Part shown: piece by piece, positions 1 to 49,500 of the stretch | Layout of the letters: every line of letters starts with the position of its first letter | Position numbering within the stretch: position 1 is the stretch's first letter | Source: Nitrospirota bacterium | GTDB taxonomy: Bacteria > Nitrospirota > Thermodesulfovibrionia > Thermodesulfovibrionales > Magnetobacteriaceae | Length of the DNA stretch: 64,000 bases | Reading direction: 5' to 3' | NCBI GenBank assembly: GCA_015233015.1 | Contig: JADFYO010000015.1 | Coordinates: forward strand, 450 to 64,449 | The notes under the pieces: generated by a model | Told to the model about the DNA's origin: nothing | Seen by the model: only the letters and a program-made list of their open reading frames with translations | The model's database searches: none | Position numbers and translations under genes: made by a program

Positions 1-694
1 GGTATTTGCCATTGTAATGATGAGGCGTCTGCCCTATGTATTAACAGGCTGGTTTTGGTACATAGGGACCCTCGTGCCGGTGATAGGTTTTGTGCAGGCG
101 GGCTTACAGTCAATGGCCGACAGATATACGTATATGCCATATGTGGGATTATTTGTTATTGCCGCAATGGCGCTGCCGGCTGAAATTATTGGGACAACAC
201 GCGGCAAGGCCATAGTCTCGATTTCCGCCGCCGTGGTAATAATCCTGTTTGCGGTAAGGGCAAAGGAACAGGCCCATTGCTGGCAGACCTCAGTTACCCT
301 GTATCGACATGCCCTCGAGGTGGATGAGGATAATTACGTTGCCCACTACAATTTGGGGACTATTTACTTATCTGAGGGGAAGGCGAACGAGGCCGTTACG
401 GCCTTCAGGAAAGTTATCATGATTAAACCCACATATGTGCTTCCCTATATAAATCTGGGGATGGTCATGTTGTTTCAGCTTCAGAGGCCGGAGGAGGCTA
501 TTGCTTATTTTTATAAGGCCATCGAGCTAGACTCGTCAAGCGCAGACGCATATAATGGCGCCGGTGCCGCCCTTGCAATCTTAAAACGTCCCCGGCAGGC
601 AATACCGTTCTTTGAGAAGGCATTAGAGCTTGCCCCAGGATTTGAACTGGCACGCGCCAATCTTGATAGGGCGCGACGAGATGCCGGGCAGTGA
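1..694 (+). CDS. TPR-repeat membrane protein, C-terminal part (gene probably continues left of the window)
   Basis: The reading frame is open to the left edge. Hydrophobic segments are followed by several TPR-like 34-aa repeats (AHYNLGTIYLSEGKANEAVTAFRKVI; PYINLGMVM..EEAIAYFYKAIEL; ADAYNGAGAAL..AIPFFEKALEL). Confidence 0.7.
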   Translation, partial: VFAIVMMRRLPYVLTGWFWYIGTLVPVIGFVQAGLQSMADRYTYMPYVGLFVIAAMALPAEIIGTTRGKAIVSISAAVVIILFAVRAKEQAHCWQTSVTLYRHALEVDEDNYVAHYNLGTIYLSEGKANEAVTAFRKVIMIKPTYVLPYINLGMVMLFQLQRPEEAIAYFYKAIELDSSSADAYNGAGAALAILKRPRQAIPFFEKALELAPGFELARANLDRARRDAGQ

Positions 695-698
695 GCCG

Positions 699-1460
699 CT
701 AGGGCATTCGTTTGTCTTTGTTCTTCATCTTTTTCCACTTATACCAGATGATTTCGTTGCTTCCGGAGGGGTAAATGAGGCGTTTTATCTTGCGGTATGG
801 GGCGCCCCACAGGCGGTTATACCAGCTGTTAAAGCCGGTGCGTCTGGCAAGGGACAGCTCATGGGCAGTCATCAGCTGCGGCTGAAAGCGTTTCTTATGT
901 TTGTAGATATGATAGATGTCCTCTCTGATAAGGCTGTCAAATATCCTGCCGCTGATGATGCCCAATATCCACGGCAGCGGCCTGAAGTATATGCTGACCT
1001 GAAAATCTATGAGATAGGGGCGGCTGTCCTCGCCGACGATGATATTGCCGAGTTTATTGAGGTCGAGATAGAATATGCGCCTTTGATGGAGCTGTTTTAT
1101 TATAGTCATCAGACCGTCGAAAAAGTCTTCGGGCAGTGTGCCCCCAAACTCATGAAGCGTAGTGCCCTCGGCAAAGCGATGAAAGTATCCCCTCATTCCA
1201 AACCTAGGCCCAAGAGGAGGAACGCCCTCTATGCCGTCAACCTTTTTATATATGCCATACTCCCGCCGCGAAAAAAACATAGCCAGAGGCCGCAGCAGTA
1301 TCCCGAATATGAACCGGAAGTCGGAGAGTTTTAAAACATATCTCACGCCGCCGCCGTTTTTATACAACACATTGACAGAAAAGAAGTCGTCCTTCAGTAT
1401 CTTTTCATACATGAAGACTTCCCCGTTTATCTCTACCTGTGAAGGATATCTTGTATTCAT
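699..1460 (-). CDS. protein-kinase-like fold protein (Kdo/LPS-kinase or RIO-like family)
   Basis: 253 aa. YVLKL resembles the beta3 Lys strand, FYLDLNKLGNIIV resembles the catalytic loop (D..N), and YLIDFQ resembles the DFG-equivalent. Family assignment is approximate. Confidence 0.5.
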   Translation of the reverse strand: MNTRYPSQVEINGEVFMYEKILKDDFFSVNVLYKNGGGVRYVLKLSDFRFIFGILLRPLAMFFSRREYGIYKKVDGIEGVPPLGPRFGMRGYFHRFAEGTTLHEFGGTLPEDFFDGLMTIIKQLHQRRIFYLDLNKLGNIIVGEDSRPYLIDFQVSIYFRPLPWILGIISGRIFDSLIREDIYHIYKHKKRFQPQLMTAHELSLARRTGFNSWYNRLWGAPYRKIKRLIYPSGSNEIIWYKWKKMKNKDKRMP

Positions 1461-1481
1461 CTCCCCTTGCTTCCGGAGGGT

Positions 1482-1925
1482 CTAATAAAGAATACCGGCT
1501 TTCTTTATTACGGAATCTTTAATAAGATCATCATCCGATTCGGCAGGATAATGAGATAATATAAAGCCTTCATCTGGATACCAATCAGGAGGAATGTCTT
1601 CTACCGGTATAGGTTCAATATTAACAGGTTCTTTATAGTTATCAACTTTTAATATGAAATATTGATTGATTTCAGGCTCTAAATATATGCTTCTTAAATC
1701 AATCTGTCCCAAATAGAAACGCTCCAGCTTATTTCGTGAAATTGCTACACAATAATATTCATCAAACTCAGAACCTCTATCATTTAATTCACAAATATAA
1801 ATTGTATCCACAGCATCTACTACCGTTATCAATATAGGCCCGTCATAGTAGTCCAAAATATTGTTAAGTGTAACTGTTATGCCAGTAGCTTGCGTATTCA
1901 AGATACCCTCCCTGCTTCTGCGCAT
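1482..1925 (-). CDS. hypothetical acidic protein, second gene of an overlapping pair
   Basis: 147-aa ORF that overlaps the upstream ORF by 28 nt. No recognisable motif. Confidence 0.45.
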   Translation of the reverse strand: MRRSREGILNTQATGITVTLNNILDYYDGPILITVVDAVDTIYICELNDRGSEFDEYYCVAISRNKLERFYLGQIDLRSIYLEPEINQYFILKVDNYKEPVNIEPIPVEDIPPDWYPDEGFILSHYPAESDDDLIKDSVIKKAGILY

Positions 1926-2293
1926 AATGTAATTGGATTAAATCCAGCCGACAGCCACCATGAATGATGTGATTCATGTGTGTAAATAGATGGGGTTGAT
2001 TTAATTAATCCACAGTCTTTGCCTAATATGAACGAAACAATTAAAAGGTCTCTGAAACGTGAATGCTTTTTTAGGCTTTTGCAACCGTCTACTGCACTAA
2101 ATATAGATACAGCCCTTTCAACGCATTCATCGACAGCGCTCCTGCGTTTGACTTCGAGTTTCTTTGTAGAATAGAAATCACTTTCGGCCGGAGGGAATGT
2201 CTTAACAATGCGATAAAATACCTTGCCATCTGGCGCAACAGCATCCTGCGGCGGACAATCTTCCGGTAAATCTTCAGCCCATTGCATATACAT
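1898..2293 (-). CDS. hypothetical protein, first gene of an overlapping pair
   Basis: 131-aa ORF with several Cys residues and a THESHHSWW motif. No family recognised. Confidence 0.45.
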   Translation of the reverse strand: MYMQWAEDLPEDCPPQDAVAPDGKVFYRIVKTFPPAESDFYSTKKLEVKRRSAVDECVERAVSIFSAVDGCKSLKKHSRFRDLLIVSFILGKDCGLIKSTPSIYTHESHHSWWLSAGFNPITLCAEAGRVS

Positions 2294-2373
2294 ATAGTAA
2301 CATAACGGTGAATATTACTCAATAAGTTTCGATACGGCGACCAAGAAAGTGTTATCCTGTGATAAACCTCTGC

Positions 2374-2401
2374 TTGACACGGCTTACACCTATGGTATAA
2401 C
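2374..2401 (+). promoter_or_regulatory. sigma70-like promoter candidate (TTGACA, 16-nt spacer, TATAAC)
   Basis: TTGACA at 2374-2379 and TATAAC at 2396-2401, about 45 nt upstream of the 2446 ORF and murJ. Confidence 0.35.
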
Positions 2402-2445
2402 CTATTCTTAAAATACGGATGATGTTACTTATAAGGTAAATCGAT

Positions 2446-2868
2446 ATGGACTGGAAATTTTCACCTCTTCAGGTACTAACCGGCGAGGTAATTTATTCGA
2501 TAGAAGATTATAGAAAAGACCTGAAAGAGGAGGTGCTGACGACCCTTGCCAATTTCAGCATGGATGAGTATTCGATAAATTTCTATATCGATTTTATCTA
2601 TACTCTGTTTTACTGGCTTGCCACTAATCAAACAGTCCTGACATACAGCAGGTTCATACAGTCGAGGCTGCCCGACGATCTGGAGCTGAAAAAGACCCTT
2701 ATTAATACCGAATTCCTATATTCCCTCGAAGTCGATAACGTCAACTTTGTCGATATGCTGCGGGCAATTCTTACTATCCTCACGCTGGGGTTTCTGAAAG
2801 ACGGCATGTCGCCTGAAGACGCAATGATTGCCTTGAAAAACGCCGCCGGTTTCGCCAGAGAAGTGTGA
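2446..2868 (+). CDS. hypothetical protein, overlaps the murJ start by 4 nt
   Basis: 140-aa ORF. Its stop overlaps the GTG start of murJ. No family recognised. Confidence 0.45.
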   Translation: MDWKFSPLQVLTGEVIYSIEDYRKDLKEEVLTTLANFSMDEYSINFYIDFIYTLFYWLATNQTVLTYSRFIQSRLPDDLELKKTLINTEFLYSLEVDNVNFVDMLRAILTILTLGFLKDGMSPEDAMIALKNAAGFAREV

Positions 2869-4436
2869 CCGAAAGAAGTAACATAGCAAGGTCTGCGTTT
2901 TCCATGACCGCGGCCACCTCGATTAGCCGCGTTCTGGGTTTTCTCAGGGATATGCTCGTTGCACGGTTTTTGGGTGCCGGGGGGTTGTCCGATTCCTTTT
3001 TCGTAGCATTCAGGGTGCCTAATCTTCTGAGAGAGCTGTTTGCCGAGGGTTCGATGTCATCCGGTGTAATCCCCGTCCTCTCGCAATATAATGCAACTAA
3101 AGGACAGTCGGCCGTCGCCGCCCTTGTCAGGGTTGCCTTCACGTTCATAGTCATATCGGCAGGGCTGGTCTGTTTAGCGGGAATTGTATTTGCCCCTCAG
3201 ATAATTCATCTCATAGCGCCGGGGTTCTCATCAAGCACAGTAAAATTCACTCAAACCGTCCTTCTTACGCGCATAATGGTTCCTTTTCTATTTTTTGTAA
3301 GCATTTCGGCCATTGTCATGGGCGCTTTGAACTCGAAGAAGATATTTTTTGTACCAGCTATGGCCTCGGCGTGGTTTAATATCGGGATAATTTCTACGAT
3401 AGCCGCGTTATATTTTGGTTTAGCCGAACGCTCAGTCGCCGTTGCCATAGGGGTTACGATTGGCGGGTTTTTTCAATTTGCCTCACAGGTGCCGACATTT
3501 TATAAATACGAGTTCACCTTAAAACCAAGTTTCACATTCAGACACCCCGGCCTGAAACAAATCGGGATGCTCATTCTGCCAGCAACATTAGGGACTGCCG
3601 TCTCTCAGTTTAATATATTTATCAGCACTATTTTGGCGTCCTATCTGCCCACGGGAAGCATAACGTATCTTTATTATGCCATGCGCCTAATTCAATTCCC
3701 CGTAGGCGTCTTTGGCGTTGCCATGGGGATGGCCGTCCTGCCGTCGCTCTCCGAACACGCGGCAAGGGGGGATTTCGACAGCCTCACGAAGGATTTTACA
3801 TTCTCTTTAAAACTCCTCTTTTCGATTACCGTTCCCTCGATGATAGGGTTGATTTCGCTGGGCGGACCAATTGTAAACGTCCTGTTTCAGCACGGGCACT
3901 TTGATTATCTGGCCACACAGGGCACGACGACTGCCCTGTTGTGTTACAGCGTTGGGATTTGGGCGATGGTTGGGGTGCGTGTCGTTGCCTCGACGTTTTA
4001 TTCCATGCAGGATACAAAGACGCCCGTAAGGGCTGCCGCCTTCACGCTTTGCATAAATATCGCCATTAGTGTCATTTTGATGCAGCACCTGTCGTATGCC
4101 GGTCTGGCGCTGGCAAACGCCATATCGTCCTCGGCGAACTTTCTTATCCTGTTTTATTTTCTGAACAAGAAACTCAGGCATATTGCCGTCAGGGGCATTA
4201 TAAAATCTTTTGCGAAGACGCTTCTGGCCGCGTTATCGATGGGGGTTGCCGGCTGGTATCTGGTTCATATAAGACAGTGGGACAGCTCCGGGCATACCCT
4301 CGTAAAATCCCTGTACCTTACCGTTATAATAGGAGTTTGCATGGGGGTTTATTTTGCCGCCGCCCATCTGCTAAAGAGCGAAGAGGTTGATTATATTGTG
4401 AAAATGTTTAAAAGAAAGATATTGGGGAGAGCATGA
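2865..4436 (+). CDS. murJ: lipid II flippase MurJ (MviN)
   Basis: 523 aa and polytopic. The N-terminus SRVLGFLRDMLVARFLGAG..SDSFFVAFRVPNLLRELFAEGSMSSGVIPVL is the MurJ signature. Confidence 0.9.
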   Translation: MTERSNIARSAFSMTAATSISRVLGFLRDMLVARFLGAGGLSDSFFVAFRVPNLLRELFAEGSMSSGVIPVLSQYNATKGQSAVAALVRVAFTFIVISAGLVCLAGIVFAPQIIHLIAPGFSSSTVKFTQTVLLTRIMVPFLFFVSISAIVMGALNSKKIFFVPAMASAWFNIGIISTIAALYFGLAERSVAVAIGVTIGGFFQFASQVPTFYKYEFTLKPSFTFRHPGLKQIGMLILPATLGTAVSQFNIFISTILASYLPTGSITYLYYAMRLIQFPVGVFGVAMGMAVLPSLSEHAARGDFDSLTKDFTFSLKLLFSITVPSMIGLISLGGPIVNVLFQHGHFDYLATQGTTTALLCYSVGIWAMVGVRVVASTFYSMQDTKTPVRAAAFTLCINIAISVILMQHLSYAGLALANAISSSANFLILFYFLNKKLRHIAVRGIIKSFAKTLLAALSMGVAGWYLVHIRQWDSSGHTLVKSLYLTVIIGVCMGVYFAAAHLLKSEEVDYIVKMFKRKILGRA

Positions 4437-5590
4437 TGGTCTCAGAAAAACTTTTTAATTGGATGAGGGAAATTCGGAGGGAAATCCACCGGCAGCCGGA
4501 ACTTGGATTTAATGAGATTAAGACCGCGGCGCTAGCTGCCGCCAAACTTACAGAACTTGGGATTGAGTTCAGAACCGGCGTTGCCAAAACAGGCGTGGTT
4601 GGATATATGGGGACGCATGGCCCGGTGGTTGCCCTGCGTGCGGACATGGACGCGCTGCCGGTTACAGAGTGTACGGGGTTGCCATTCGCGTCTGAGACGC
4701 CGGGGGTTATGCACGCCTGCGGGCATGACGGGCATGTGGCAATTGTGCTTGGGGCGGCATATCTTCTCAAACAAGACCCGCCGAAAGGCCGTATCGTTTT
4801 CATATTTCAACCTAATGAAGAGGGTTCGGGAGGGGCAAAGCCTATGATAGCGGAGGGAATACTCAACGGTATAGACGCCATATTCGCAGGCCACATAGAC
4901 CCCCGCTTCGATGCGGGGAAGATTATCCTGACGCCCGGCGTTAATAACGCCTACACCGACGGCTTCGATGTGGAAATAACCGGCAGAGCAGGCCACGCCG
5001 CTCGTCCGCAAGAGGCCATAGACGCGGTAGTAATTGCGTGTTCGATGGTAATGCAGATTCAGGGCATTATCTCGCGCAGTGTTGACCCGCTGAAACCCGC
5101 CGTCATCACAATAGGCGCGATTAACGGCGGCACTGTAAACAACGTCATAGCCGAATATGTCATATTAAAAGGAACGATAAGAACGCTTGACGACGCGACA
5201 AGACAGCTGATATTCAGAAAGCTGAAGGCGCTCGCGTCATCTTATGAGGCAATGCACGGCGCAAAAATAGAGGTCATATTTCATGACGGCTACCCGCCGC
5301 TGATAAATCATCCGGGGCAGTTCGAGACAGCGCAAGCTGCGGCTGCGGCCACAACAGGCAGCGATAATATAATAATCCATCCAACGCCAAGCATGGGAGG
5401 AGAGGATTTCGCCTTTTTCCTGGAGAAAATCCCGGGATGTTTCACGCGTTTCGGGGCACGCAAATCAGGCCACGAACAGTTCCCGCTTCACAACCCGAAC
5501 TTCGACTTTGACGAAGAGGTGTTAAAAACGGCGGCGGAGTTTATGGCCCGTGCCGTGCGCATGGAGATTGAAAAATTAGAGGCAAATTGA
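4433..5590 (+). CDS. M20-family amidohydrolase (N-acyl-amino-acid / hippurate hydrolase type)
   Basis: 385 aa with the motifs HACGHDGH, FQPNEEG and GGEDFAFF. Confidence 0.85.
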   Translation: MMVSEKLFNWMREIRREIHRQPELGFNEIKTAALAAAKLTELGIEFRTGVAKTGVVGYMGTHGPVVALRADMDALPVTECTGLPFASETPGVMHACGHDGHVAIVLGAAYLLKQDPPKGRIVFIFQPNEEGSGGAKPMIAEGILNGIDAIFAGHIDPRFDAGKIILTPGVNNAYTDGFDVEITGRAGHAARPQEAIDAVVIACSMVMQIQGIISRSVDPLKPAVITIGAINGGTVNNVIAEYVILKGTIRTLDDATRQLIFRKLKALASSYEAMHGAKIEVIFHDGYPPLINHPGQFETAQAAAAATTGSDNIIIHPTPSMGGEDFAFFLEKIPGCFTRFGARKSGHEQFPLHNPNFDFDEEVLKTAAEFMARAVRMEIEKLEAN

Positions 5591-7770: not shown

Positions 7771-9585
7771 TTACGTCATAAATATGACCTCTTCATATGT
7801 GGTGATGCCTTCGAGCATTTTACGAATTGCCGCCTCGCGCAGCGTTATCATCCCGTCGGCGGCGGCGGCGGCGTATAGGTTATTGAGGTCAACTTTGTCC
7901 GAAAGCACCCTTCGCACCCGCTCAGTAAACTCCATGACCTCAAAGATAGCGGTTCGCCCGCGATAGCCCGTTCCCCGGCATTCGATACACCCCTCGCCGT
8001 AGTTTATTGTGTATGTGGTGTTTTTATCCAGCTTCAGGTATCCGGTTTCGTCCTCTGTCAATACGCGCTGGCTTTTACAGTGGACACATATCTTTCTAAC
8101 GAGCCGCTGGGCGATTATCCCTATCAGCGTCGATGAGATGAGAAATGACGGGATGCCCAAATCTAAAAGACGTGTGATAGAAGATGGAGAGTCGTTTGTG
8201 TGGAGCGTTGATAGGACAAGATGCCCCGTGAGGGCAGATTGAATGGCGTTGTCTGCGGTCTCTTTGTCTCTTATCTCACCAACCATTATTATGTCAGGGT
8301 CCTGGCGCAGGATTGTGCGAAGCATGGTGGCGAATGTGACGCCGATTGACTGCTGTACGCTGACCTGATTAAACTCCTCGATGACCATCTCGATAGGTTC
8401 CTCGAGCGTTACGATGTTTACTTCCGGGCTGGACAGAATTCTAAGTGATGAGTATAAGGTTGTGGTCTTGCCGCTTCCCGTTGGGCCGGTAACGAGGATT
8501 ATGCCGTTAGGCCGTCTGATAAATGAGTCATAGAGTTGATATTCACGGGGATAAAATCCTAGTTTTTCAATATCCTGCATCATCATGTCGGGGTCGAATA
8601 TCCTTATGACGATTTTCTCTCCAAAGGCGGTTGGCAGGGTTGATACACGCAGCTCAAGCTCCTTGTCGTTGTGGCTGGTCTTTATTCTGCCGTCCTGAGG
8701 GCGACGTTTTTCGGTTATATCCATTCGGGAGAGCATCTTTATTCTTGAGGTGATAGGGGCGTGGACTGCCTTAGGTGTTGAGTGTACGGTATGAAGAATG
8801 CCGTCAATTCTGAGCCTTACGATGGACTTATCGCGCTTTGGCTCAATGTGTATATCGCTTGCCCGCTGGTCAAAGGCATACTGAAATAGGTACGAGACTG
8901 CCCTGACTATGTGCGAGTCGGTGGCGTCAATCTCCCCTTGTCCCCTTAGTTTTACGAATTGCTCGAGATTACCAAGGTCAACGCCGGGCTGCATCTCCGC
9001 CTGAGCGGCCGCGATAGAGGAATGAAAACCGAAAAACTCCCTTACGATTTTCAGCACATCGCTCTTTGAGCTTAACACGAGGCGTGTTTTTAGATTCTTC
9101 GCGTGCTTGAGGCTTTCAACGGCCTCCATATCGTATGGATCAATTACCGCCAGTGTGATTACTCCGGCATTGTTTTCAACGGGCACTATCATGTGCCTCA
9201 GGGCGAATGGGCGTGGAACGTGCCCCGTTACTACGTCGAGTTCGAGCTTAATAGGGTCAAGTTTCATGTACGGCAGGCCTGTCTCCGCGGCAACTGCCTC
9301 GGTGATGACGTCTTCGTTAAGGAGTTTGCCACCCGCACCCGGTATCTCAAGCTCCAGTGCGGCAATTGCCTCTGCCGGGGTGACAACTACGATGCCTTGT
9401 GAGGTGCGTTTATTAGCGCCTCCCGCCTCGTTAAGCAGCCGGAGTCTGGTCATCTGTTCCTCGCCCCTTGCCGCAATGTCCGAATAAGATTCCTTTGTTA
9501 TCAGCCGTCTTTTAAGCAGAAAGGCTGCGGTCATTTCGATTGTCAGGCGTTTCTTCGATGCCTTATCTGTCGGCCTGTTAGTCAA
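7771..9585 (-). CDS. GspE/PilB-family secretion ATPase
   Basis: 604 aa. It has Walker A GPTGSGKTT, a His box LVLSTLHTN, and the tetracysteine CVHC..CIEC. Confidence 0.85.
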   Translation of the reverse strand: MTNRPTDKASKKRLTIEMTAAFLLKRRLITKESYSDIAARGEEQMTRLRLLNEAGGANKRTSQGIVVVTPAEAIAALELEIPGAGGKLLNEDVITEAVAAETGLPYMKLDPIKLELDVVTGHVPRPFALRHMIVPVENNAGVITLAVIDPYDMEAVESLKHAKNLKTRLVLSSKSDVLKIVREFFGFHSSIAAAQAEMQPGVDLGNLEQFVKLRGQGEIDATDSHIVRAVSYLFQYAFDQRASDIHIEPKRDKSIVRLRIDGILHTVHSTPKAVHAPITSRIKMLSRMDITEKRRPQDGRIKTSHNDKELELRVSTLPTAFGEKIVIRIFDPDMMMQDIEKLGFYPREYQLYDSFIRRPNGIILVTGPTGSGKTTTLYSSLRILSSPEVNIVTLEEPIEMVIEEFNQVSVQQSIGVTFATMLRTILRQDPDIIMVGEIRDKETADNAIQSALTGHLVLSTLHTNDSPSSITRLLDLGIPSFLISSTLIGIIAQRLVRKICVHCKSQRVLTEDETGYLKLDKNTTYTINYGEGCIECRGTGYRGRTAIFEVMEFTERVRRVLSDKVDLNNLYAAAAADGMITLREAAIRKMLEGITTYEEVIFMT

Positions 9586-11481: not shown

Positions 11482-11510
11482 TTGACTAATAATTCTATTT
11501 GTGTTACTAT
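11482..11510 (+). promoter_or_regulatory. sigma70-like promoter candidate (TTGACT, 17-nt spacer, TACTAT)
   Basis: It lies inside the 5' end of the listed ORF 11499-12725. This argues for a later start codon. Confidence 0.4.
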
Positions 11511-11582
11511 AGTATGCAGACTGCTATATTCATAGCAGGATTCTTGTTGCATAATCCAAATATTTTGATGAGGAGGATGTTT

Positions 11583-12725
11583 ATGTCAGACGCGTGTTAC
11601 ATTAAAGACCCCAAGACGGGGCGATTTCTGGGGAGAAAGCCGGGATGTTCGAATAATACCGGTGAGGTGCCAGAGAAGCTGCTGCAAAAAGTGGCAAAGG
11701 ATAAGGGTGTAATTGAGCGTAGGGTTGACGCTGCGGCAGCCTCAGGAAAGCTGCAACGTCAGGATAGTGCGGTAAAAGACAAGGCAGAGGAATTAGCGCG
11801 TGCGGTCAACAGCGGGAAGATGAGCTACCCGGAGGCACTATACGAGTTGACAAAGGGCAGCCGCTCATCAGGCCGTTACGGCAGGGCGATTGACCTGTTA
11901 GACAGGGACGCCAGTTATTGGAATAGCATAAGATCAAAAACCGGTTCAGACGAGGTTGATACGCTGATAGGCGGCTATGCAGGCGCACCGGTACCGGGCG
12001 CTACGGATTTTGCGCTGAATTTGTCTGGCGGCAAATCGGGTATGCAAGAGATCAGTGATCAAGAGCCTCAGATACCATCGGGTGCAACGAGGAAACAGCT
12101 TGATGCCCAGCACGAGAAATGGACGGGAATAATCAAGGAAAGGCACCATCCCGACGATTCTAAAAGCATTGATAAACGTGGTGTTTATGACAAGAACAAA
12201 CATACAAACTGCCACGGCAATGAGTGCGATACACAGGCCTCTGTCTATGCTGGCTCCTTACATGGGAGCCCGACATCGAGTGGAACTATACATGATAAAC
12301 ATGGATATACCGCGGCGATGCCACCAACTTATGTTGGCAAACTTGATCGAAAAAAACCTATATATGCCGAGGTTACTAACAAGGCAAACGGGGAGAAAGT
12401 CATAGTCAAAGTTGACGACAAAGGTCCATTTCCAGTCAGGGATAAAGATCCAAATACGGCGGAAGGTAAAAAGAAATCGCATGAAGACCCAACCAGAGCC
12501 ATCGACCTCTCGGCGGCAGCATATGCCAAAATTGCGAAAAATCCAGGCGATGGAGTCCTAAATGTGACAGTTAAGTTTCTAAAGCCCGAAGATGGAGAGC
12601 GTAAGTATAAAGAACAAAACGAATGGGCTGCAAAGCACGAACCGGAAATTAAGCAAAAAGTGCAGGACGCACTCTGTACCGTTGATAGAGCCTACCACTA
12701 CAATAAGGATAACAAATGTCCATAG
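11583..12725 (+). CDS. protein with C-terminal RlpA-like double-psi beta-barrel (DPBB) domain, no signal peptide
   Basis: QASVYAGSLHGSPTSSG..TAAM...IVKVDDKGPF...RAIDLSAAAYAKI..G..NVTVKFL matches the RlpA DPBB pattern. AGGAGG at 11571-11576 favours ATG 11583. About 230 aa of the N-terminus is unassigned. Confidence 0.65.
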   Translation: MSDACYIKDPKTGRFLGRKPGCSNNTGEVPEKLLQKVAKDKGVIERRVDAAAASGKLQRQDSAVKDKAEELARAVNSGKMSYPEALYELTKGSRSSGRYGRAIDLLDRDASYWNSIRSKTGSDEVDTLIGGYAGAPVPGATDFALNLSGGKSGMQEISDQEPQIPSGATRKQLDAQHEKWTGIIKERHHPDDSKSIDKRGVYDKNKHTNCHGNECDTQASVYAGSLHGSPTSSGTIHDKHGYTAAMPPTYVGKLDRKKPIYAEVTNKANGEKVIVKVDDKGPFPVRDKDPNTAEGKKKSHEDPTRAIDLSAAAYAKIAKNPGDGVLNVTVKFLKPEDGERKYKEQNEWAAKHEPEIKQKVQDALCTVDRAYHYNKDNKCP

Positions 12726-12756
12726 TTCGTTTCTATCCATAGTTTACATGATGTTC

Positions 12757-12800
12757 AATAATGAGAGAAGTATGACCATGCTTCTCTCATTATTTTTTAT
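12757..12800 (+). terminator. Rho-independent terminator
   Basis: A 14-bp perfect stem (aataatgagagaag / cttctctcattatt) with a 10-nt loop, followed by a T-run. Confidence 0.65.
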
Positions 12801-12816
12801 TCTATGAAAAAAATGC

Positions 12817-12846
12817 TTGACAATTGCATATACGTATGTATAAAAT
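12817..12846 (+). promoter_or_regulatory. sigma70-like promoter candidate (TTGACA, 16-nt spacer, TATAAA)
   Basis: TTGACA at 12817-12822 and TATAAA at 12839-12844, about 40 nt upstream of the cassette gene A start, which has an AGGAG ribosome-binding site. Confidence 0.5.
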
Positions 12847-12883
12847 AGCGAAGATGTGTATTTTAAGTCGAGGAGCTAAACAC

Positions 12884-13345
12884 ATGTCATTGTGTCTGAG
12901 ATTAGTGATTATGTTAGTTGTCTCGTCGGTGATATTCTCACCGGAAGCTGGATTTTCGAATAAATATGAGAATAAGTTTTATATTGTCTCGATGAAAGAC
13001 TCGTACGCTGATAATAATTATAAGGTTAGGGCATTCTTTTTGGATCCAGGACTCAATAGCGATATCTACAGCATACCCAAAATGCCCAAAGATTGGCATT
13101 ATGGCTTTAATGGTGATCGCATAGTCGGATTAATTGCCGCAGCTTATACAGATAGGGCGGCTGTCGATATAGGGTATTTTAAGGAATTTCTCGCCTTTAT
13201 TTTACAACCAGATCATCCAGAGGATGAACTCTCTTTTAGCATGACACTGATTTGTTACAAACCCGACGGAACACCTGAAATACTATTTCTTGACACCAAA
13301 GACTTTATTATAAAGGAAATTCATACAGGCCTGAAGAAGTATTAA
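12884..13345 (+). CDS. small secreted protein, cassette 1 subfamily A
   Basis: The start MSLCLRLV is identical to that of A' (14439) and is preceded by AGGAG. It has a hydrophobic signal-like N-terminus and the motifs KVRAFFL, IPKMPKDW.YGF and KDF. Confidence 0.7.
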   Translation: MSLCLRLVIMLVVSSVIFSPEAGFSNKYENKFYIVSMKDSYADNNYKVRAFFLDPGLNSDIYSIPKMPKDWHYGFNGDRIVGLIAAAYTDRAAVDIGYFKEFLAFILQPDHPEDELSFSMTLICYKPDGTPEILFLDTKDFIIKEIHTGLKKY

Positions 13346-13414
13346 ATTACATAGAGCGTAAACTTAACTAATCAAGATAATTAACACAGAGTGGATAGCT
13401 TATTATTAAACTGT

Positions 13415-13927
13415 ATGACACTGAGTATTCGAAATAGACCGGCTGCTTTGCTGATAGTTTCAGCGGTGATGCTGTTTGTCGTTACCGATGTTGCTGTTGC
13501 GGTTAAATGTGAAAACACGTATTATTATGCCTCGTTTAGTTATTCTAAAAAGTATTATAAAACAAAAAAAATCAGGGCGTTTGATATTTCTGTTTCCTAT
13601 GCTTATATATATGACCTTCCCAAATTACCATCATCATGGGTATATGTTATTGATAATGATTCAGGTTCTGATAGGGATATTACTCATATAACCGCTATGG
13701 CAAAGTCAGACAAACATTCCATCAGAGTTAAAGATCTTAATAAATTTGTTATTCTTAGACAACCTAAAGACAAATCTGAATATAATATATTAATAGGATT
13801 AAACTTAATATATTTGAAGAAAGAAGGTGGTAGCGGCACAACGGCTGCTTCGTTAGACACCTTTCATAATGATCTTACGATAGAAAAGATAAATAAATGC
13901 TTACCAATAAAACCACTAAGACATTAA
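13415..13927 (+). CDS. small secreted protein, cassette 1 subfamily B
   Basis: Collinear with B'. Motifs are KCENTYYYASF, IRAFDISV, YDLPKLPSSWVY and KSDKHSI, with a C-terminal KC. The start could alternatively be GTG 13391. Confidence 0.65.
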   Translation: MTLSIRNRPAALLIVSAVMLFVVTDVAVAVKCENTYYYASFSYSKKYYKTKKIRAFDISVSYAYIYDLPKLPSSWVYVIDNDSGSDRDITHITAMAKSDKHSIRVKDLNKFVILRQPKDKSEYNILIGLNLIYLKKEGGSGTTAASLDTFHNDLTIEKINKCLPIKPLRH

Positions 13928-14382
13928 TCATACTGACAATAGTATTGTTCGCCTTCTCTTTTGCCGAAGGGGACGATGACCTCTTCTGCGTGTCGTTGAA
14001 GGAACTTCCCAAAAGCAACAAATTATTTCACCGTGTAGTCGGTTTAGATTTTCACGTAAGTAATGCCGAAATATATAGAATCTTACATAATCCACCCGGA
14101 TTTGAATTCGAGGTGAATAAGAATAAGAACTGGAGCGGGAGTTATAGCGGCTCTAAGTGGAATGGCCCCGGAGGTTTCTATATGCCATTTTTCTACGATG
14201 ATTTCGTTGTGATAAAGACACGAACAGGCGTTAATTTAGACAAAGTCAAGATAAAGTTTAGTTTCACCGTAGAACAGGACTCAATCGACGACAAAGGCAA
14301 GGAAATAGATGATGGTGAGGTAACATATCATTTTACAAATAAAGATTTAAACATTCACAGATGTAAAGACAAGCCGTACTAA
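13897..14382 (+). CDS. small secreted protein, cassette 1 subfamily C
   Basis: The signal-like N-terminus is LIILTIVLFAFSFAEGDD. Its 3' third is near-identical in DNA to C'. It overlaps B by 31 nt. Confidence 0.7.
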   Translation: MLTNKTTKTLIILTIVLFAFSFAEGDDDLFCVSLKELPKSNKLFHRVVGLDFHVSNAEIYRILHNPPGFEFEVNKNKNWSGSYSGSKWNGPGGFYMPFFYDDFVVIKTRTGVNLDKVKIKFSFTVEQDSIDDKGKEIDDGEVTYHFTNKDLNIHRCKDKPY

Positions 14383-14438
14383 GACAATGAACTGATCTTA
14401 TAAAGATTTGCATTTAAATCAACGCAGGAGCTGATCGC

Positions 14439-14891
14439 ATGTCATTATGCCTGAGATTAGTGGTGTTATTAGTTGTCTCGTTGGCAATTTTCTCACCAGA
14501 GGCTGTGATTGCCGAACAATGTGACTATAAACTTTACAGTATTTCATTAAAAGATACACTGCTTAAGAATAAGTATAAGGTTAGGGCGTTCTTTTTAGGC
14601 AATGCCGATGTTACTCGCATACCCAAAATACCAAGAGGTTGGCGTTATGGCTTTCATGATCAATTATCATACGGTTTAATTGCATCGGCTTGTTCAGACA
14701 AGTATGCGGTCAGCATAGACTATTTTAAGGATTTTCTAACCATTGTCTATGCACCAGAGCATCCAGATGAAAAACTGTATCTCAATACGAAACTGATTTA
14801 TATTAAGCCCAATGGAACATCTGAAATCATGGTTCTTCACACAAAAGACTTTGTTTTAAAGGAAATACATAAATGCCTGAAGGAAAATTGA
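14439..14891 (+). CDS. small secreted protein, cassette 2 subfamily A'
   Basis: Paralogue of A, with the motifs MSLCLRLVV, KVRAFFL, IPKIPRGWRYGF, SDKYAVSIDYFKDF and KC. Confidence 0.7.
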   Translation: MSLCLRLVVLLVVSLAIFSPEAVIAEQCDYKLYSISLKDTLLKNKYKVRAFFLGNADVTRIPKIPRGWRYGFHDQLSYGLIASACSDKYAVSIDYFKDFLTIVYAPEHPDEKLYLNTKLIYIKPNGTSEIMVLHTKDFVLKEIHKCLKEN

Positions 14892-15388
14892 TTATTAATC
14901 TGCAGAATAGACTGGCTGTTTTGCTGACCATTTCGGGGGTGCTGCTGTTTGCCGCTGCCGATGTCGCGGCTGTATGTGAAGATACATATTATTATGCCTC
15001 GTTTAATGATGCGCGTTATTATCCAACACAAAGAATCAGGGCATTTGACCTGTCTGTTTTAGACGCTTATATATACGACCTGCCCAAATTACCATCCTCA
15101 TGGGTATATATTTTTGATAAGGATGATTTGTGTATTACTGGGGTTACTGCCGCAGCTAAGTCAGATAAATATGCTATCAGCTTTAAAGACCTTAAAAAAT
15201 TTATTATCCTTAGTCAGCCAAAAGATCTGTCAGGTAAGGAACCATATATAAGTTTTAGTCTTGCATATATGAAAAAAGAAGGTGGTACCGGCACAAAAGT
15301 TGCTTTGCTGGAGCGCTTCATAGATGTTTATGATTTTAAAATAGTAAAGATAGATAAATGCATACTAAAAAAACAGCGATTACATTAA
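14873..15388 (+). CDS. small secreted protein, cassette 2 subfamily B'
   Basis: Paralogue of B, with the motifs VCEDTYYYASF, IRAFDLSV, YDLPKLPSSWVY and KSDKYAISFKDLKKF. It overlaps A' by 19 nt. Confidence 0.7.
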   Translation: MPEGKLIINLQNRLAVLLTISGVLLFAAADVAAVCEDTYYYASFNDARYYPTQRIRAFDLSVLDAYIYDLPKLPSSWVYIFDKDDLCITGVTAAAKSDKYAISFKDLKKFIILSQPKDLSGKEPYISFSLAYMKKEGGTGTKVALLERFIDVYDFKIVKIDKCILKKQRLH

Positions 15389-15852
15389 TCATACTGACAA
15401 TTGTATTGTTCGCCTTTTCTGTCGCCGAAGGAGACGATAACCTCTTCTGCGTGTCATTGAAGGAATTCCACAAAACCAATAAATTGTTTCGCCGCATACG
15501 CAGCTTTGATTTTCACGTAACTAATGCCGAAATACAAATTATACCAGATACGCCGTCCGTACATGGCTTCAATGTTGAAAATAATATTAACTGGAGCGGA
15601 AGTTACGACGGCAATTGTAATGGTGGTCGTGGTGGTCCCGGAGGTTTCGAGATAGATTCTTTATATGATGATTTTGTAGTAATCAGGAAACGTCCAGGCG
15701 TTAAATTAGACAAAGTCAGGATAAAGTTTAGTTTCACAGTAGAACAGGACTCAATCAACAATAAAGGTGAAGAGACAGATGATGGTGAAGTAACATATCA
15801 TTTTACAAATAAAGATTTAAACATTCGCAAATGCAAAGACTTGCCGTACTAA
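15358..15852 (+). CDS. small secreted protein, cassette 2 subfamily C'
   Basis: Paralogue of C. It overlaps B' by 31 nt, the same overlap as B/C. Confidence 0.7.
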   Translation: MHTKKTAITLIILTIVLFAFSVAEGDDNLFCVSLKEFHKTNKLFRRIRSFDFHVTNAEIQIIPDTPSVHGFNVENNINWSGSYDGNCNGGRGGPGGFEIDSLYDDFVVIRKRPGVKLDKVRIKFSFTVEQDSINNKGEETDDGEVTYHFTNKDLNIRKCKDLPY

Positions 15853-15988
15853 GACAGCTACCTTGCTAAGAATAGGACATTTCTACTTTGGTACGACATT
15901 AGAAATTGGGGTTGTTGACATCAAAAAAATAATTGTAGTACGATATTGAAGGGAATAAAACCTTTATTTTGCTAAGGGAGCAGGTCAG

Positions 15989-17056
15989 ATGCTATTTATA
16001 GAAGATATAAAAAGTGAGTATGAAAATAAGTCTTGCCTTTATGGTGAGTTTCTTGAAGAGGTGACGAACCAGCTTAAAGATATTCTTTGTAGGAATGAAA
16101 TGCAGAAAATATCAGAAATAACTTCAAGAATTAAAGATTTTGCATCTATCACTCACAATATCAACAATTATAAGTATAAACCTACAATACCTGCTAAACT
16201 GTGTGATATAACAGATTTAGCCGGTATTAGGATAACTTTGCTATTTAAAAGAAATATCGAAGCAATTTGTAAGTTGATTGAAACCTATTATGAGGTAAAA
16301 AGAAAGAAATACATATTTCAGTCAGAACAACAATTCGGTTATGAATCACTCCACTATGAAGTGAAAATAAAAAGGGAGTGCTGCACTTTTGATAAATATG
16401 ATAAGTTCAATAACTTGATTGTAGAGATACAGGTTAGAACACTTGCACAGCATCTTTGGGCGGCTGCCTCACATTATCTTAATTACAAAGAAAGAAAAGA
16501 TGTCGCGTTGCCATTTCAGAGACCTATGGGCAGGATATCAGCTCTTTTAGATATGGTTGACGATGAATATGATCGTCTATTGAATTTAAAGGAAAAATAT
16601 CAAAAGGAGATCGAAATCAGCGATTCTAAGGAAATGCTTAATGTTGATTTGTTAAAGAGAATATTAGATGAAGAATTTCCAGCCGATAAGGGTTTTCGGT
16701 TAGGTAATCCGGATGATCCGAATGTTATTTTAGAGAATTTATTTCTGTTTAATATAAGTACTGTGAAAGAATTTCGTGCACTACTGAATAAACAAAAAAC
16801 TAATGCACTTAAATATCAGGAAAGTGGATTTAGGATGATGCGTATGATTGAACCTCGTAAGATTGAACTTGATGCAAAAGGGCTGATTACCTTTTCTATA
16901 TATGGTATTATAGAAAAAATGCTTGCATTAGAGTTTGGCAAGGAGAATGGCTTTGATTTTTTTGAAAAGATCAATAGGATACCAGCAGGAACAATGGAGA
17001 AACTAATTTCATCTATGGAGATAAAAGAACAGGAAGATAAAAATGATAAAGGATAG
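15989..17056 (+). CDS. stand-alone RelA/SpoT-domain (RSD) nucleotide pyrophosphokinase with a C-terminal extension of about 150 aa
   Basis: 355 aa. Motifs are SRIKDFASI, DLAGIRI, GYESLHYEV and EIQVRTLAQHLWAAASHYLNYK (synthetase-type RSD). No HD hydrolase, TGS or ACT domain is seen. Confidence 0.75.
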   Translation: MLFIEDIKSEYENKSCLYGEFLEEVTNQLKDILCRNEMQKISEITSRIKDFASITHNINNYKYKPTIPAKLCDITDLAGIRITLLFKRNIEAICKLIETYYEVKRKKYIFQSEQQFGYESLHYEVKIKRECCTFDKYDKFNNLIVEIQVRTLAQHLWAAASHYLNYKERKDVALPFQRPMGRISALLDMVDDEYDRLLNLKEKYQKEIEISDSKEMLNVDLLKRILDEEFPADKGFRLGNPDDPNVILENLFLFNISTVKEFRALLNKQKTNALKYQESGFRMMRMIEPRKIELDAKGLITFSIYGIIEKMLALEFGKENGFDFFEKINRIPAGTMEKLISSMEIKEQEDKNDKG

Positions 17057-46503: not shown

Positions 46504-49500
46504 TTGACGTTAGATATAGTGGCCGCTGGCAGCTTCCCTTTTAATAACCAAAACCTTTTTTCCAATAATTATCTGCAATATATCTTACCAGAATCTGACC
46601 TTTGGAAACAGCGGAGTCCGAAGGCCAGAGAGGCGTATGAATCCATAAAAGTGCATTATGAAAAAATAAGGGAATTAAATTTAGGTACGGGCCAGGAGGC
46701 CGAATTAGAAGATAAATTTATCAGACCAGTTATCTCTGCCCTTGGTTATGAGTACTCCGTGCAACCTGTTACCCAACGTAATAGTGCTACGAAGAAAAGG
46801 CCGGATTACGCCTTATTTAAGGATTTAGAGGCACGAACTACCGCGTACGCCGAAAAGGACAACCTTAAAAAGTTTTATTCCTGCGCGATAACCATTATTG
46901 AGGCAAAACACTGGGGACGCCGCCTTAATGACACTGACAGAGGCGATACCATCGACAGCCGCGACCCCACGGCACAGACAATAAAATACCTTGAGGATGT
47001 TCACTACCACAGCGGCGGCCTGACAAACTGGGCTTTTCTCACAAATGGAAAGACCTGGAGGCTGTTTTATTACAGGGCAAGCTCCAAAGTGGGGAACTAT
47101 TACGAGGTTGACCTCGAGGAGATAATTCTAAACGGCGACGCGGAGAGTTTCTTGTATTTTTACCTGTTTTTCGCGAAAGACGCCTTAATTGAAGACCCTG
47201 CCACCGGAAAAACATGGCTTGAGCAGCACTTAAAAGGCTCTGAGGATTATGCCGTAAGGGTCTCCGAAAGGCTCAGAGATCTTATATTTGACGAGGTATT
47301 TGAGCTTCTGGCCGCAGGTTTTATTCACTTTAGAAAGACGGCGCTCTCTATTGTGAATGAAACACAGGAGAACAGGGAGGCAATATTCAAAGGCTGCCTG
47401 ACACTGCTTTACCGCCTCCTGTTTTTACTATACGCAGAAAGCCGAAACCTCCTTCCAATGGATAACGGTCATTACAGAAAGATTAGTCTATCGTCGGTAA
47501 AAGAGGCCGTCAGCAATGATATCGTAACTAACGGAATCGCCGGAATGAGCAGAAACATGTATAGCTATTGGGCAAGACTTGACGGCATATTCGGGATAGT
47601 CTCAAAAGGCGACCCCGGCATGAACGTACCGGTATATAACGGAGGGTTATTCGAGGCGTCGAAATCCGGCATCCTCAAAGACCATAAAATCGCCGACCCC
47701 TTCATAGCCAGGGCATTAGAGCTGCTTACAGTTGATAATGATGGGCATTTGACCAGCCGGTTTATCGATTATTCGTCCCTTGGCGTTCGTCATCTTGGCG
47801 ACATCTATGAGGGACTGTTAGAGTTTCGGCTGCAAATTGCAGACGAGGACATCGCCGAGGTCAGGGAAAATGGCAAGTCTCTCTGGAGAAAGGCCGCAGA
47901 TGTAAACCCAGCGGCGAAGACATTTAAAAATAAGCCTAAGGGAGAGGCGTATATCGAAAACTCAAAGCACGAGAGAAAGTCCACAGGTTCATATTACACG
48001 CCGCATTACGTAGTGCAGTTCATAGTTGAACACACCGCCGCCCCTGTCCTCGATAAAAAACTGAACGAGGTGGAGGCTATGCTTTCAGAGCTTAGGCAGA
48101 CCAAATCGGCACTCAAAAAACAGAGGGCAACTGCCTCGATACAAGGGTACAGGGATAAAATAACGCACCTTGAAGAGGCAATATTTACAAGGCTTTTCGA
48201 TATTAAAGTCCTTGACCCATCAATGGGAAGCGGACACTTTTTAGTTCATGCCGTGGATTTCATCTCCGATAAGATAGCGGCGTTTCTCGCAGGTTACCCC
48301 GACAATCCGGTTATTGACAGGATCCTTGCCCAGCGAAAAGATATTATGGCAGAGACTGCTAAACAGGGGGTGAGGATTGACGAGGGCCGCCTTACAGAGG
48401 TAACCCTGATAAAGCGTCTGGTGATGAAAAGATGTATATATGGCGTTGATAGTAATGATATGGCGGTGGAACTTGCCAAACTTTCTCTCTGGCTTGATTG
48501 CTTTACAGTAGGCGCCCCGCTGTCGTTTATCGATCACCATCTGAAGTGCGGCAACAGCCTTATTGGCGTGCAGGATATTTCAGGCGTTGTACTGCCAAAT
48601 ACAAACGAATTCTCAAAATTTCAGCGCGCCCTCTCCTTTATTATACAGGTCTCGGAATTAACTGATTCCACCATCGACGAGGCAAAAAGAAGCTATGCCC
48701 TTTTCAAAGATTCAGCCGAGGAGCTTGCCCCGATTCGCAGGAGATTTGACGTAAACGTGGCTAAACATTTCATGGATATTTGTGAAATAGTAAGCCGTAT
48801 GGAGCATCTGGCCTATACGCTGGAGTTTGAGAAAGAGCCGTTTCCGGAGGTAGTCGAGGCATGTAATAAGGCCCTGCAAATAGCAAGAGAACATCGCTTC
48901 TTTCACTGGAGGCTGGAGTTTCCCGAAGTCTTCTATACCGTCAGCGGTGAGAGGGACACGCCAGGATTTGACTGCGTCATTGGCAACCCGCCCTATATCA
49001 ATATTATGCTTATAGCCGACGAGCAGATAAAATATTTAAAGAAGACTTACAAGACCGCAAGGAGACGATTTGACCTGTACGTACTGTTTTGCGAGCTGGC
49101 CGTAACACTACTCAAACGAGACGGCTATCATTCCTTTATCGTTCCCGATAAAATCCTCAGCGAAACATACGCCGCGTCTTTAAGAGAGATGCTTATTAAG
49201 GAATATAAGATAACAAATTTATTGAATTTAAAGAACATTAAGGTGTTTTACGAGGCCGCCGTAAAACCTGTTATTTATGTCATCGAGAATAAACCGGCAG
49301 AGGTTGGCAACGAGATAGCTGTCGAAACACCCCTGAATGACGCCTTAAAGGATATGGAAAAGGCAGTGGTCTGCCAGCATGATTTCCTGAAAATGCCGGA
49401 GTTCAGAATAAGATTCGAGTGGTCGCAGGGGATTGAAACAATAATAGATAAGATCGATAGGGTATCGTTTCCCGCGTCGAGGGTTCTTTATATTAGCTGG

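Follow-up and report, generated by a model that had tools for sequence, protein, structure and literature searches.

What would a bacterium gain from six small, apparently exported proteins of one family, encoded in tandem behind a single cell-wall-binding protein? This question is raised by a stretch of 64,000 nucleotides from a Nitrospirota bacterium (GenBank assembly GCA_015233015.1, contig JADFYO010000015.1, positions 450 to 64,449 of the forward strand; hereafter the window, numbered from its first letter), in which two consecutive three-gene units, A-B-C and A'-B'-C', follow a gene that we call D. An initial annotation had treated the six small genes as the unit of interest and had offered two roles for their products, primarily a heteromeric periplasmic or surface complex and, as a second option, periplasmic immunity to the cell-wall-binding protein encoded upstream. 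The comparative evidence presented here favors the second role and shifts the boundary of the system: the functional unit begins one gene earlier and includes D, the C-terminal part of which is an RlpA-like double-psi beta-barrel (DPBB) domain. We propose that the locus is a polymorphic peptidoglycan-toxin/periplasmic-immunity module of the form D-(A-B-C)2, a reading to which we assign a probability of roughly two in three.

Distribution and co-divergence of D and the A-B-C units

A homologue search placed relatives only in Candidatus Magnetominusculus and closely related Nitrospirota metagenome-assembled genomes. A census, in which C-family patterns were scanned over one genome per species (185,579 species), returned 20 loci in six Magnetominusculus-like genomes, and these were annotated with purpose-built hidden Markov models (HMMs). 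All complete loci have the structure D-(A-B-C)n in strict order, with n = 1, 2 or 3 and 24 complete units overall, and each genome carries 4-8 copies of the module. The initial annotation had asked whether the A-B-C order and the neighboring DPBB and RelA/SpoT genes recur elsewhere; the order and the DPBB gene do, but the RelA/SpoT gene lies beside no other copy. Since the flanks of paralogous loci have nothing in common, the RelA/SpoT gene is best seen as a chance neighbor, which D is not. Atypical loci also occur, namely a decayed D-C locus with a frameshifted D and a C lacking a signal peptide (L020, 8853-10414), one with the order D-C-A-B-C (L021, 5265-8572) and an A-B-C unit with no D in the 2 kb upstream (L011, 2020-3447).

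As in polymorphic toxins, the N-terminal part of D is conserved among paralogues and the C-terminal, predicted toxin domain is variable. Within one genome the N-terminal regions are 76-98% identical (about 86%) and the DPBB domains 39-58% (about 50%), and the proteins of L015 and L021 share 98% identity in the former and 39% in the latter. Between genomes the DPBB domain can be the closer of the two, as it is for the window and L005 (DPBB 75%, N-terminus 56%). Also as in polymorphic toxins, the A-B-C genes lie directly 3' of D in every complete locus and co-vary with the DPBB domain. Over 66 locus pairs, the adjacent A, B and C diverge in correlation with the DPBB domain (r = 0.69, 0.72 and 0.82, respectively) and not with the D N-terminal region (r about 0.1). 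As the locus pairs are non-independent and the genomes few, these values are indicative only. A recognized trafficking domain, a further feature of polymorphic toxins, is absent from the D protein of the window and present only in the relatives L038, L086 and L105.

The two units of the window differ in their affinities. Unit 1 is closest to unit 1 of L005, L014, L015 and L010, the loci whose DPBB domain is closest to that of the window. For unit 2 the closest match is unit 1 of L004 and L006, loci with another type of D. These groupings fit a cognate set with a non-cognate set of orphan-like character behind it.

Gene D encodes an RlpA-like domain without an export signal

The start of D, at ATG 11583, was set from an alignment of 13 paralogues and from a ribosome-binding site, GAGGAGG, at 11570-11576. 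The conserved N-terminal region of the protein (~150 aa) opens MSDACYIKDPKTGRFLGRKPGCS... and the DPBB domain occupies about residues 215-330. D matches Pfam DPBB_1 above the curated threshold (8.8e-9; 35.9 bits versus a cut-off of 28.8), is also matched by RlpA models and aligns to PA4485, and its DPBB domain retains the (N/D)D-x-GP(F/Y) and (I/V)DL(S/T) motifs found in RlpA-like proteins. Its scores are far below the cut-offs of full-length RlpA models (TIGR00413, 33.7 bits versus 82; PRK10672, 27.4 versus 201), no SPOR domain was detected in the Pfam scan, and the full RlpA architecture of lipoprotein signal, DPBB and SPOR is not present. The N-terminal region has no relatives in Pfam or the PDB, and a word-indexed homologue search with this domain returned two close relatives only. 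D also has no hydrophobic N-terminus (maximum hydropathy -0.02) and, judged from this profile, is a protein that carries no signal peptide. We infer that D is a peptidoglycan-cleaving toxin.

Distant relatives and their linkage to Rhs proteins

The small-protein family is less isolated than it had appeared, as an exhaustive profile search uncovered wider single- and two-domain relatives in other bacteria. An A+B profile HMM searched against 1.84 billion representatives gave 79 hits, and those from outside Magnetominusculus are for the most part ~145-160 aa long, with predicted signal peptides and the common motifs ERIVGF, IP.GW, DNDPSWNT, VGAAAL and FF.DF.VIEK. The homology of these distant relatives with the C family is clear (hhalign 99.3%, E 7.8e-21), and ten representatives that were scanned matched no Pfam family. 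In two unrelated genomes of high GC (guanine plus cytosine) content, L024 and L026, the relative overlaps an upstream DPBB gene lacking a signal peptide by 4 and 8 nt. A metagenome scan with a degenerate DNA pattern for DNDPSWNT, which biases the sample toward one subfamily, yielded 86 loci, 66 of them with a family member. A DPBB open reading frame (ORF) lies directly upstream in 28 of the 50 loci that have at least 450 nt of upstream sequence; the remaining loci hold orphan small genes or decayed DPBB remnants, and such copies are usual for immunity genes. Where the pairing is kept, the DPBB gene lacks a signal peptide and in most cases overlaps the small gene.

In three of these relatives (L038, L086 and L105) the partner DPBB domain directly follows the end of an Rhs core (TIGR03696, 1e-21 to 1e-24, above cut-off). 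In L086 at least five orphan Rhs-tip/small-ORF modules are strung together, the DPBB/small-family pair among them. Long-established comparative and experimental work has identified the downstream small gene in Rhs orphan arrays as the immunity gene. Within L086 (Ga0326727_10003351, locus coordinates 1-5553, minus strand) each tip opens with the core end ...YYRARYYDPMEGRF...DP.GL and is then followed by a different small ORF; one tip is of the DPBB type, and the others have unassigned toxin domains. In L114, L115 and L116 a D-like protein, which in L115 shares the N-terminal domain of D (independent E-value 2e-23), is followed by a two-domain protein that fuses A-like and C-like domains. These fusions place the split between A and C before the origin of the genus and indicate that the types function jointly. 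Free-standing DPBB partners from soil and peat metagenomes (L026, L029, L042, L062, L076, L092, L099 and others) share a conserved start, MPFI(N/S)GR(F/Y)YMNP(A/V)YGRA, which resembles a YD repeat and the N-terminus of the Magnetominusculus D proteins (CY[LI]KDPKTGKF) and may represent a shared delivery or recombination signal.

The resemblance of D to RlpA invites a different explanation, namely endogenous wall remodeling. D would then be the cell's own lytic transglycosylase, reaching the wall by non-classical export or acting at lysis or division, and A, B and C would restrain it much as Ivy restrains MltB, with no interbacterial antagonism involved. Some distant small-family genes do lie beside housekeeping genes (IscU-like, FtsY-like) with no DPBB gene, and no delivery apparatus was found in the window, both of which fit this explanation. 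However, one would not expect a housekeeping enzyme to occur 4-8 times per genome as highly divergent copies whose N-terminus is constant and whose catalytic domain varies, or to form an Rhs tip within orphan toxin arrays, and D is without any export signal. We therefore regard endogenous remodeling as unlikely and retain the toxin/immunity module as the better account.

Duplication, predicted export and modeled fold of the A, B and C proteins

An ORF scan recovered all six small genes, intact and in the order A-B-C-A'-B'-C', at the coordinates given by the initial annotation (Table 1). Pairwise BLASTP shows 49% identity between A and A' (7e-47), 53% between B and B' (3e-58) and 67% between C and C' (9e-71), and in nucleotide sequence the two units align as collinear direct repeats (72-84% identity) with a spacing of 1455-1555 nt. 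The run of 37 identical nucleotides that had been noticed in C and C' was located at 14320 and 15790. The six genes are thus a diverged tandem duplication, as the collinear pairs had suggested. The three types are also related to one another: by BLASTP, A' and B' are 30% identical across their full length (3e-17), and the similarity of B' to C' (6e-6) and of A' to C' (2e-4) is confined to the N-terminal ~70 residues. Profile-profile comparison nonetheless reveals homology of C with A+B (hhalign probability 97.5%, E 5.9e-12).

The overlaps of 31 nt (B/C, B'/C') and 19 nt (A'/B') reported at the outset are as described, though their conservation is not the same. The B-C junctions of related loci overlap in all 26 cases, by exactly 31 nt in 19 of them. 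At 23 of 25 A-B junctions there is a positive gap, and so the A'/B' overlap is a local peculiarity. The translational coupling first proposed for the cassette as a whole consequently holds from B to C and not from A to B; as read from the gene arrangement, the conserved overlap shows B and C to be translationally coupled.

The N-termini of the family are strongly hydrophobic, with a maximum 11-residue Kyte-Doolittle hydropathy that averages about 3.0 over 79 members. In agreement with the signal-like N-termini first described, all members have a charged start followed by a hydrophobic core of 11-15 residues, and AxA-like sites (VAV/A, SFA/E) can be recognized by sequence inspection, which does not distinguish cleaved from membrane-anchored forms. 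The family also has a pair of cysteines, one at the mature N-terminus and the other near the C-terminus. Both are present in 16 A proteins, neither in 8 and a single one in none; all 26 B proteins and 28-29 of the 29 C proteins have both. That the cysteines are kept or lost together points to a disulfide, and hence to an extracytoplasmic location. A, B and C are predicted to be exported by Sec signal peptides to the periplasm, so the localization signals of D and of A, B and C would be opposite, with D lacking the hydrophobic N-terminus that all of the others possess.

None of the six proteins has a significant match in Pfam, NCBIfam, PADLOC or PHROGs, and the family profiles match no PDB sequence, which agrees with the earlier statement that no characterized domain could be recognized. 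AlphaFold2 models built from family alignments are all-beta for both B' (pLDDT 85.4, pTM 0.79) and C' (pLDDT 87.1, pTM 0.80), each a confident beta-sandwich. Because Foldseek searches of the PDB retrieved only generic Ig, cohesin and YcnI-like sandwiches, with TM-scores of up to 0.47, we left the fold family unassigned. The C' model, the only one compared with the BFVD library of viral structures, found no structural relatives there. The findings that the initial annotation had named as counting against it did not appear: no mundane domain is matched, the N-termini are signal-like, and both the gene order and the DPBB neighbor recur.

The beta-sandwich fold bears on the role that the initial annotation had put first, a structural complex in which A, B and C would form a heteromeric fiber, sheath or adhesin and D would aid its assembly through the wall. 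The modeled sandwiches weakly resemble cohesin, pilin and Ig-like modules, and the strict A-B-C order, the conserved B-C coupling and the existence of A-like/C-like fusion proteins would all suit subunits of one assembly. Nevertheless, no usher, sortase, secretin or other assembly gene is present at any of the 20 loci, and the single-domain relatives are one-to-one partners of DPBB toxins, whether free or Rhs-borne. A structural subunit would not be expected to diverge so rapidly in step with the DPBB domain, and D, having no signal peptide, could not reach the periplasm to assist. A structural complex is in our judgment quite improbable, and immunity to D remains the role that we favor.

Transcription of the A-B-C array

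The candidate promoter of D sits 5' of its ribosome-binding site. Behind D, a GC-rich hairpin (GAGAGGAG...CTCCTCTC) with a T-run is present in 13 of 13 related loci, and in 13 of 13 the TTGACA element of the array and its downstream hexamer are found at the same position. Besides this hairpin, the D-to-A spacer of all 13 comparable loci holds a promoter of the form TTGACA-N17/18 and a ribosome-binding site, GGAG. Both elements that the initial annotation had described, a promoter-like element of the array's own and a strong terminator before it, are present and conserved in these loci. The A-B-C array is thus a separate and apparently strong transcription unit, and with its own promoter 3' of the D terminator, expression of immunity would be independent of expression of the toxin. 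In nearly all loci a palindromic core, CATATACGTA[CT]G, is conserved between TTGACA and the hexamer of the array promoter; it was seen at 12726-12883 of the window and in the equivalent D-to-A spacers of L004-L019, and could serve as an operator at which one regulator acts on all the immunity arrays.

Table 1. Features of the D-(A-B-C)2 locus, in positions of the window.
Feature	Position	Strand	Description
Promoter of D	11482..11510	+	Sigma-70-like candidate, TTGACT-17-TACTAT with TG; consensus scan only
D	11583..12725	+	380 aa; conserved ~150-aa N-terminal region, variable linker, C-terminal RlpA-like DPBB domain
Terminator of D	12757..12794	+	Predicted intrinsic terminator from a scan, 17-bp stem then T-run
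Promoter of A-B-C array	12817..12846	+	Predicted, TTGACA-18-TAAAAT; 11/12 consensus positions
A	12884..13345	+	153 aa; unit 1, A-type predicted beta-sandwich, signal-peptide-like N-terminus, both family cysteines lost
B	13415..13927	+	170 aa; unit 1, B-type; ORF opens also at GTG 13391
C	13897..14382	+	161 aa; unit 1, C-type, 31-nt overlap with B
A'	14439..14891	+	150 aa; unit 2, A-type; closest to the A proteins of unit 1 in L004 and L006
B'	14873..15388	+	171 aa; unit 2, B-type, 19-nt overlap with A'
C'	15358..15852	+	164 aa; unit 2, C-type, 31-nt overlap with B'

Proposed mechanism

Gene structure, conservation, co-divergence and, in relatives, linkage to Rhs are the observations on which our model is built. 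In this model, D would be made without a Sec signal, its conserved N-terminal ~150 residues would serve delivery, and its C-terminal RlpA-like DPBB domain would cut the glycan strands of peptidoglycan once it reaches a periplasm, either that of a neighbor or that of the producer after re-entry. A, B and C would reside in the periplasm as disulfide-stapled beta-sandwiches and neutralize the DPBB domain there. Constitutive and independent transcription of A-B-C would protect the cell whether or not D is made. The adjacent D would have unit 1 (A-B-C) as its cognate set. Unit 2 (A'-B'-C') resembles the set that is cognate to a different type of D in other genomes and probably provides protection against non-self toxins or is the relic of a displaced toxin; additional units of this kind would broaden protection. 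Joint action of the three paralogues is probable, given that they are invariably passed on as a unit and that relatives fuse A-like and C-like domains. The strict conservation of the A-B-C unit and these fusions also lend indirect support to a putative stoichiometric heteromeric complex.

Several points weigh against this model. Outside its DPBB domain D has no match in Pfam, NCBIfam or the PDB and no trafficking domain of the PAAR, Rhs, MIX, LXG, filamentous haemagglutinin or similar kinds, and the window encodes no secretion machinery for such toxins. Delivery is consequently the weakest part of the proposal, and the route would be either contact-dependent or diffusible in the manner of colicins. 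The predicted catalytic competence of the DPBB domain rests on conserved motifs and on RlpA biochemistry, and the fold similarity of A, B and C is so generic that an inhibitor mechanism cannot be read from the structure. Three co-required immunity paralogues are atypical of toxin/immunity pairs, and nearly half of the sampled distant relatives have no upstream DPBB gene. To these we add the non-independence of the locus pairs behind the correlations above. The enzymatic activity and toxicity of D, its neutralization, the formation of a heteromer and the delivery route are the predicted parts of the model.

A more specific version would make A+B+C an obligate heterotrimeric complex of periplasmic immunity, in which three diverged copies of a single beta-sandwich fold cage the DPBB toxin between them, and the N-terminal domain of D a previously unknown delivery route in uncultured magnetotactic Nitrospirota, whether as a diffusible bacteriocin or as a new secretion signal. 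We put this version forward tentatively and consider it doubtful as it stands, though if true it would mean that toxin and immunity each represent a new class and that immunity can follow a multi-subunit principle.

Comparison with known systems

The kind of system proposed, a polymorphic toxin with periplasmic immunity, is well known. The closest parallel is with Rhs/YD-repeat toxins, which likewise combine a constant N-terminal part with a variable C-terminal toxin domain, have immunity genes immediately 3' that co-diverge with the toxin, and occur at multiple loci and in arrays with extra immunity genes; moreover, L038, L086 and L105 carry the DPBB/small-family pair as an Rhs tip. The D protein of the window differs in that it has no Rhs repeats, PAAR or detectable Rhs core, its N-terminal domain is a family of its own, and its immunity is a three-paralogue unit instead of a single gene. 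A short motif in D, CY[LI]KDPKTGKF.GSKPG, looks by eye like the last YD repeat; the likeness of the first ~20 residues to a YD repeat is without statistical support, and we offer it as a lead only.

Wall-targeting effectors of type VI secretion systems (T6SS; Tae/Tai, Tge/Tgi, Tse1/Tsi1, Tse3/Tsi3) pair an enzyme lacking a signal peptide with a small periplasmic immunity protein encoded next to it. The same logic applies to D, a predicted wall enzyme without a signal, and the exported small proteins encoded alongside it. Unlike these effectors, D has a double-psi beta-barrel as its toxin fold and not an amidase or lysozyme fold, A, B and C have no sequence similarity or convincing fold similarity to solved immunity proteins, and no type VI genes are present in the window. 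Literature searches gave no link between RlpA-like domains and the T6SS.

Colicin-type bacteriocins that attack the wall (pesticin/Pim, colicin M/Cmi) are modular toxins without signal peptides, accompanied by an exported immunity protein. By analogy they offer a possible delivery model for D, in which the N-terminal part would fit uptake matched to the species of the producer and the C-terminal part would act in the periplasm; D has no sequence relation to them, however, and no lysis gene is present. RlpA itself, a septal lytic transglycosylase, shares with the C-terminal domain of D the DPBB_1 match and the (N/D)D-x-GPF and IDL(S/T) motifs, but D has neither a lipoprotein signal nor a SPOR domain and has a different N-terminal domain. 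On the immunity side, Ivy, PliC/MliC, PliG and PliI are small exported proteins considered to inhibit peptidoglycan-cleaving enzymes within the periplasm. A, B and C are similarly small and predicted to be exported, but have no sequence match to these inhibitors, none of which is among their structural matches.

What is apparently undescribed is the DPBB/RlpA-type toxin domain, the beta-sandwich immunity superfamily, the N-terminal domain of D and the three-paralogue immunity unit. The 2012 polymorphic-toxin catalogue (PMC3482391) has no entry for a DPBB/RlpA toxin domain, and a literature search returned no relevant papers on such a toxin domain. If our reading is true, it adds to the repertoire of bacterial competition a new class of wall-degrading toxin, the RlpA-like double-psi beta-barrel, and an immunity family, neither of which is in Pfam, NCBIfam, PADLOC, that catalogue or the literature searched. 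The immunity family extends beyond this genome in single-domain, two-domain and three-gene forms, and, as it has no curated model, one experimental characterization would annotate the whole superfamily. The three-paralogue unit also provides a setting in which to ask whether several subunits can be needed for immunity. The 4-8 loci per genome suggest intense kin or strain competition in these uncultured magnetotactic Nitrospirota.

Neighboring genes and the question of phage origin

The RelA/SpoT gene 3' of the array (15989-17056, + strand, 355 aa, with a promoter-like site at 15915-15944) encodes a protein with a synthetase domain (Pfam, 5.5e-19). The protein also matches PDC-S33, a candidate defense family in PADLOC (2.4e-16), and phrog_9640, a family of phage proteins with no assigned function (2.5e-38). 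We consider it a possible toxSAS/CapRel-type protein, a small alarmone synthetase that is toxic. As a partner of the module it was rejected, since no homologue flanks any other locus. Its GC content is very low (0.31-0.34), and it forms a common low-GC island with the cassette. Across 11500-17000 of the window the module itself is split in composition, with D at a genome-like 0.46-0.51 and the A-B-C genes at 0.33-0.38.

The phage-family match of this gene and the low GC content of the A-B-C genes raise the idea of a phage-derived lysis cassette, in which D would be an endolysin without a signal and A, B and C would be spanin-like or other lysis accessories. The gene arrangement has some likeness to such cassettes, as endolysins commonly lack a signal peptide and can be followed by overlapping small genes for exported proteins. 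On the other hand, PHROGs contain no match for A, B, C or their distant relatives, and two scans of 2.9 million viral contigs returned zero loci with the same pattern that gave the 86 metagenome hits. The search of viral structures with the C' model was likewise empty, no holin or other phage gene flanks any locus, and the predicted folds are beta-sandwiches and not coiled-coil spanins. A phage origin is scarcely credible on these grounds and was rejected for the zero viral-contig loci, the lack of PHROG matches for A, B and C and the absence of phage genes in the flanks.

Two genes upstream of D, on the minus strand, the window encodes a PilB/GspE-type secretion ATPase with an MshEN domain (7771-9585). 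Type II secretion system genes also adjoin L001, and nothing similar lies beside L002 or recurs at other loci. Type II secretion as a partner of the module was judged coincidental, as there is no recurrence beyond L001 and the ATPase of the window. No tRNA genes were found across the whole window. Farther downstream, at 46504-50631 on the plus strand, the window encodes a type IIG restriction-modification enzyme (Eco57I/MmeI type), a fused protein of 1375 aa.

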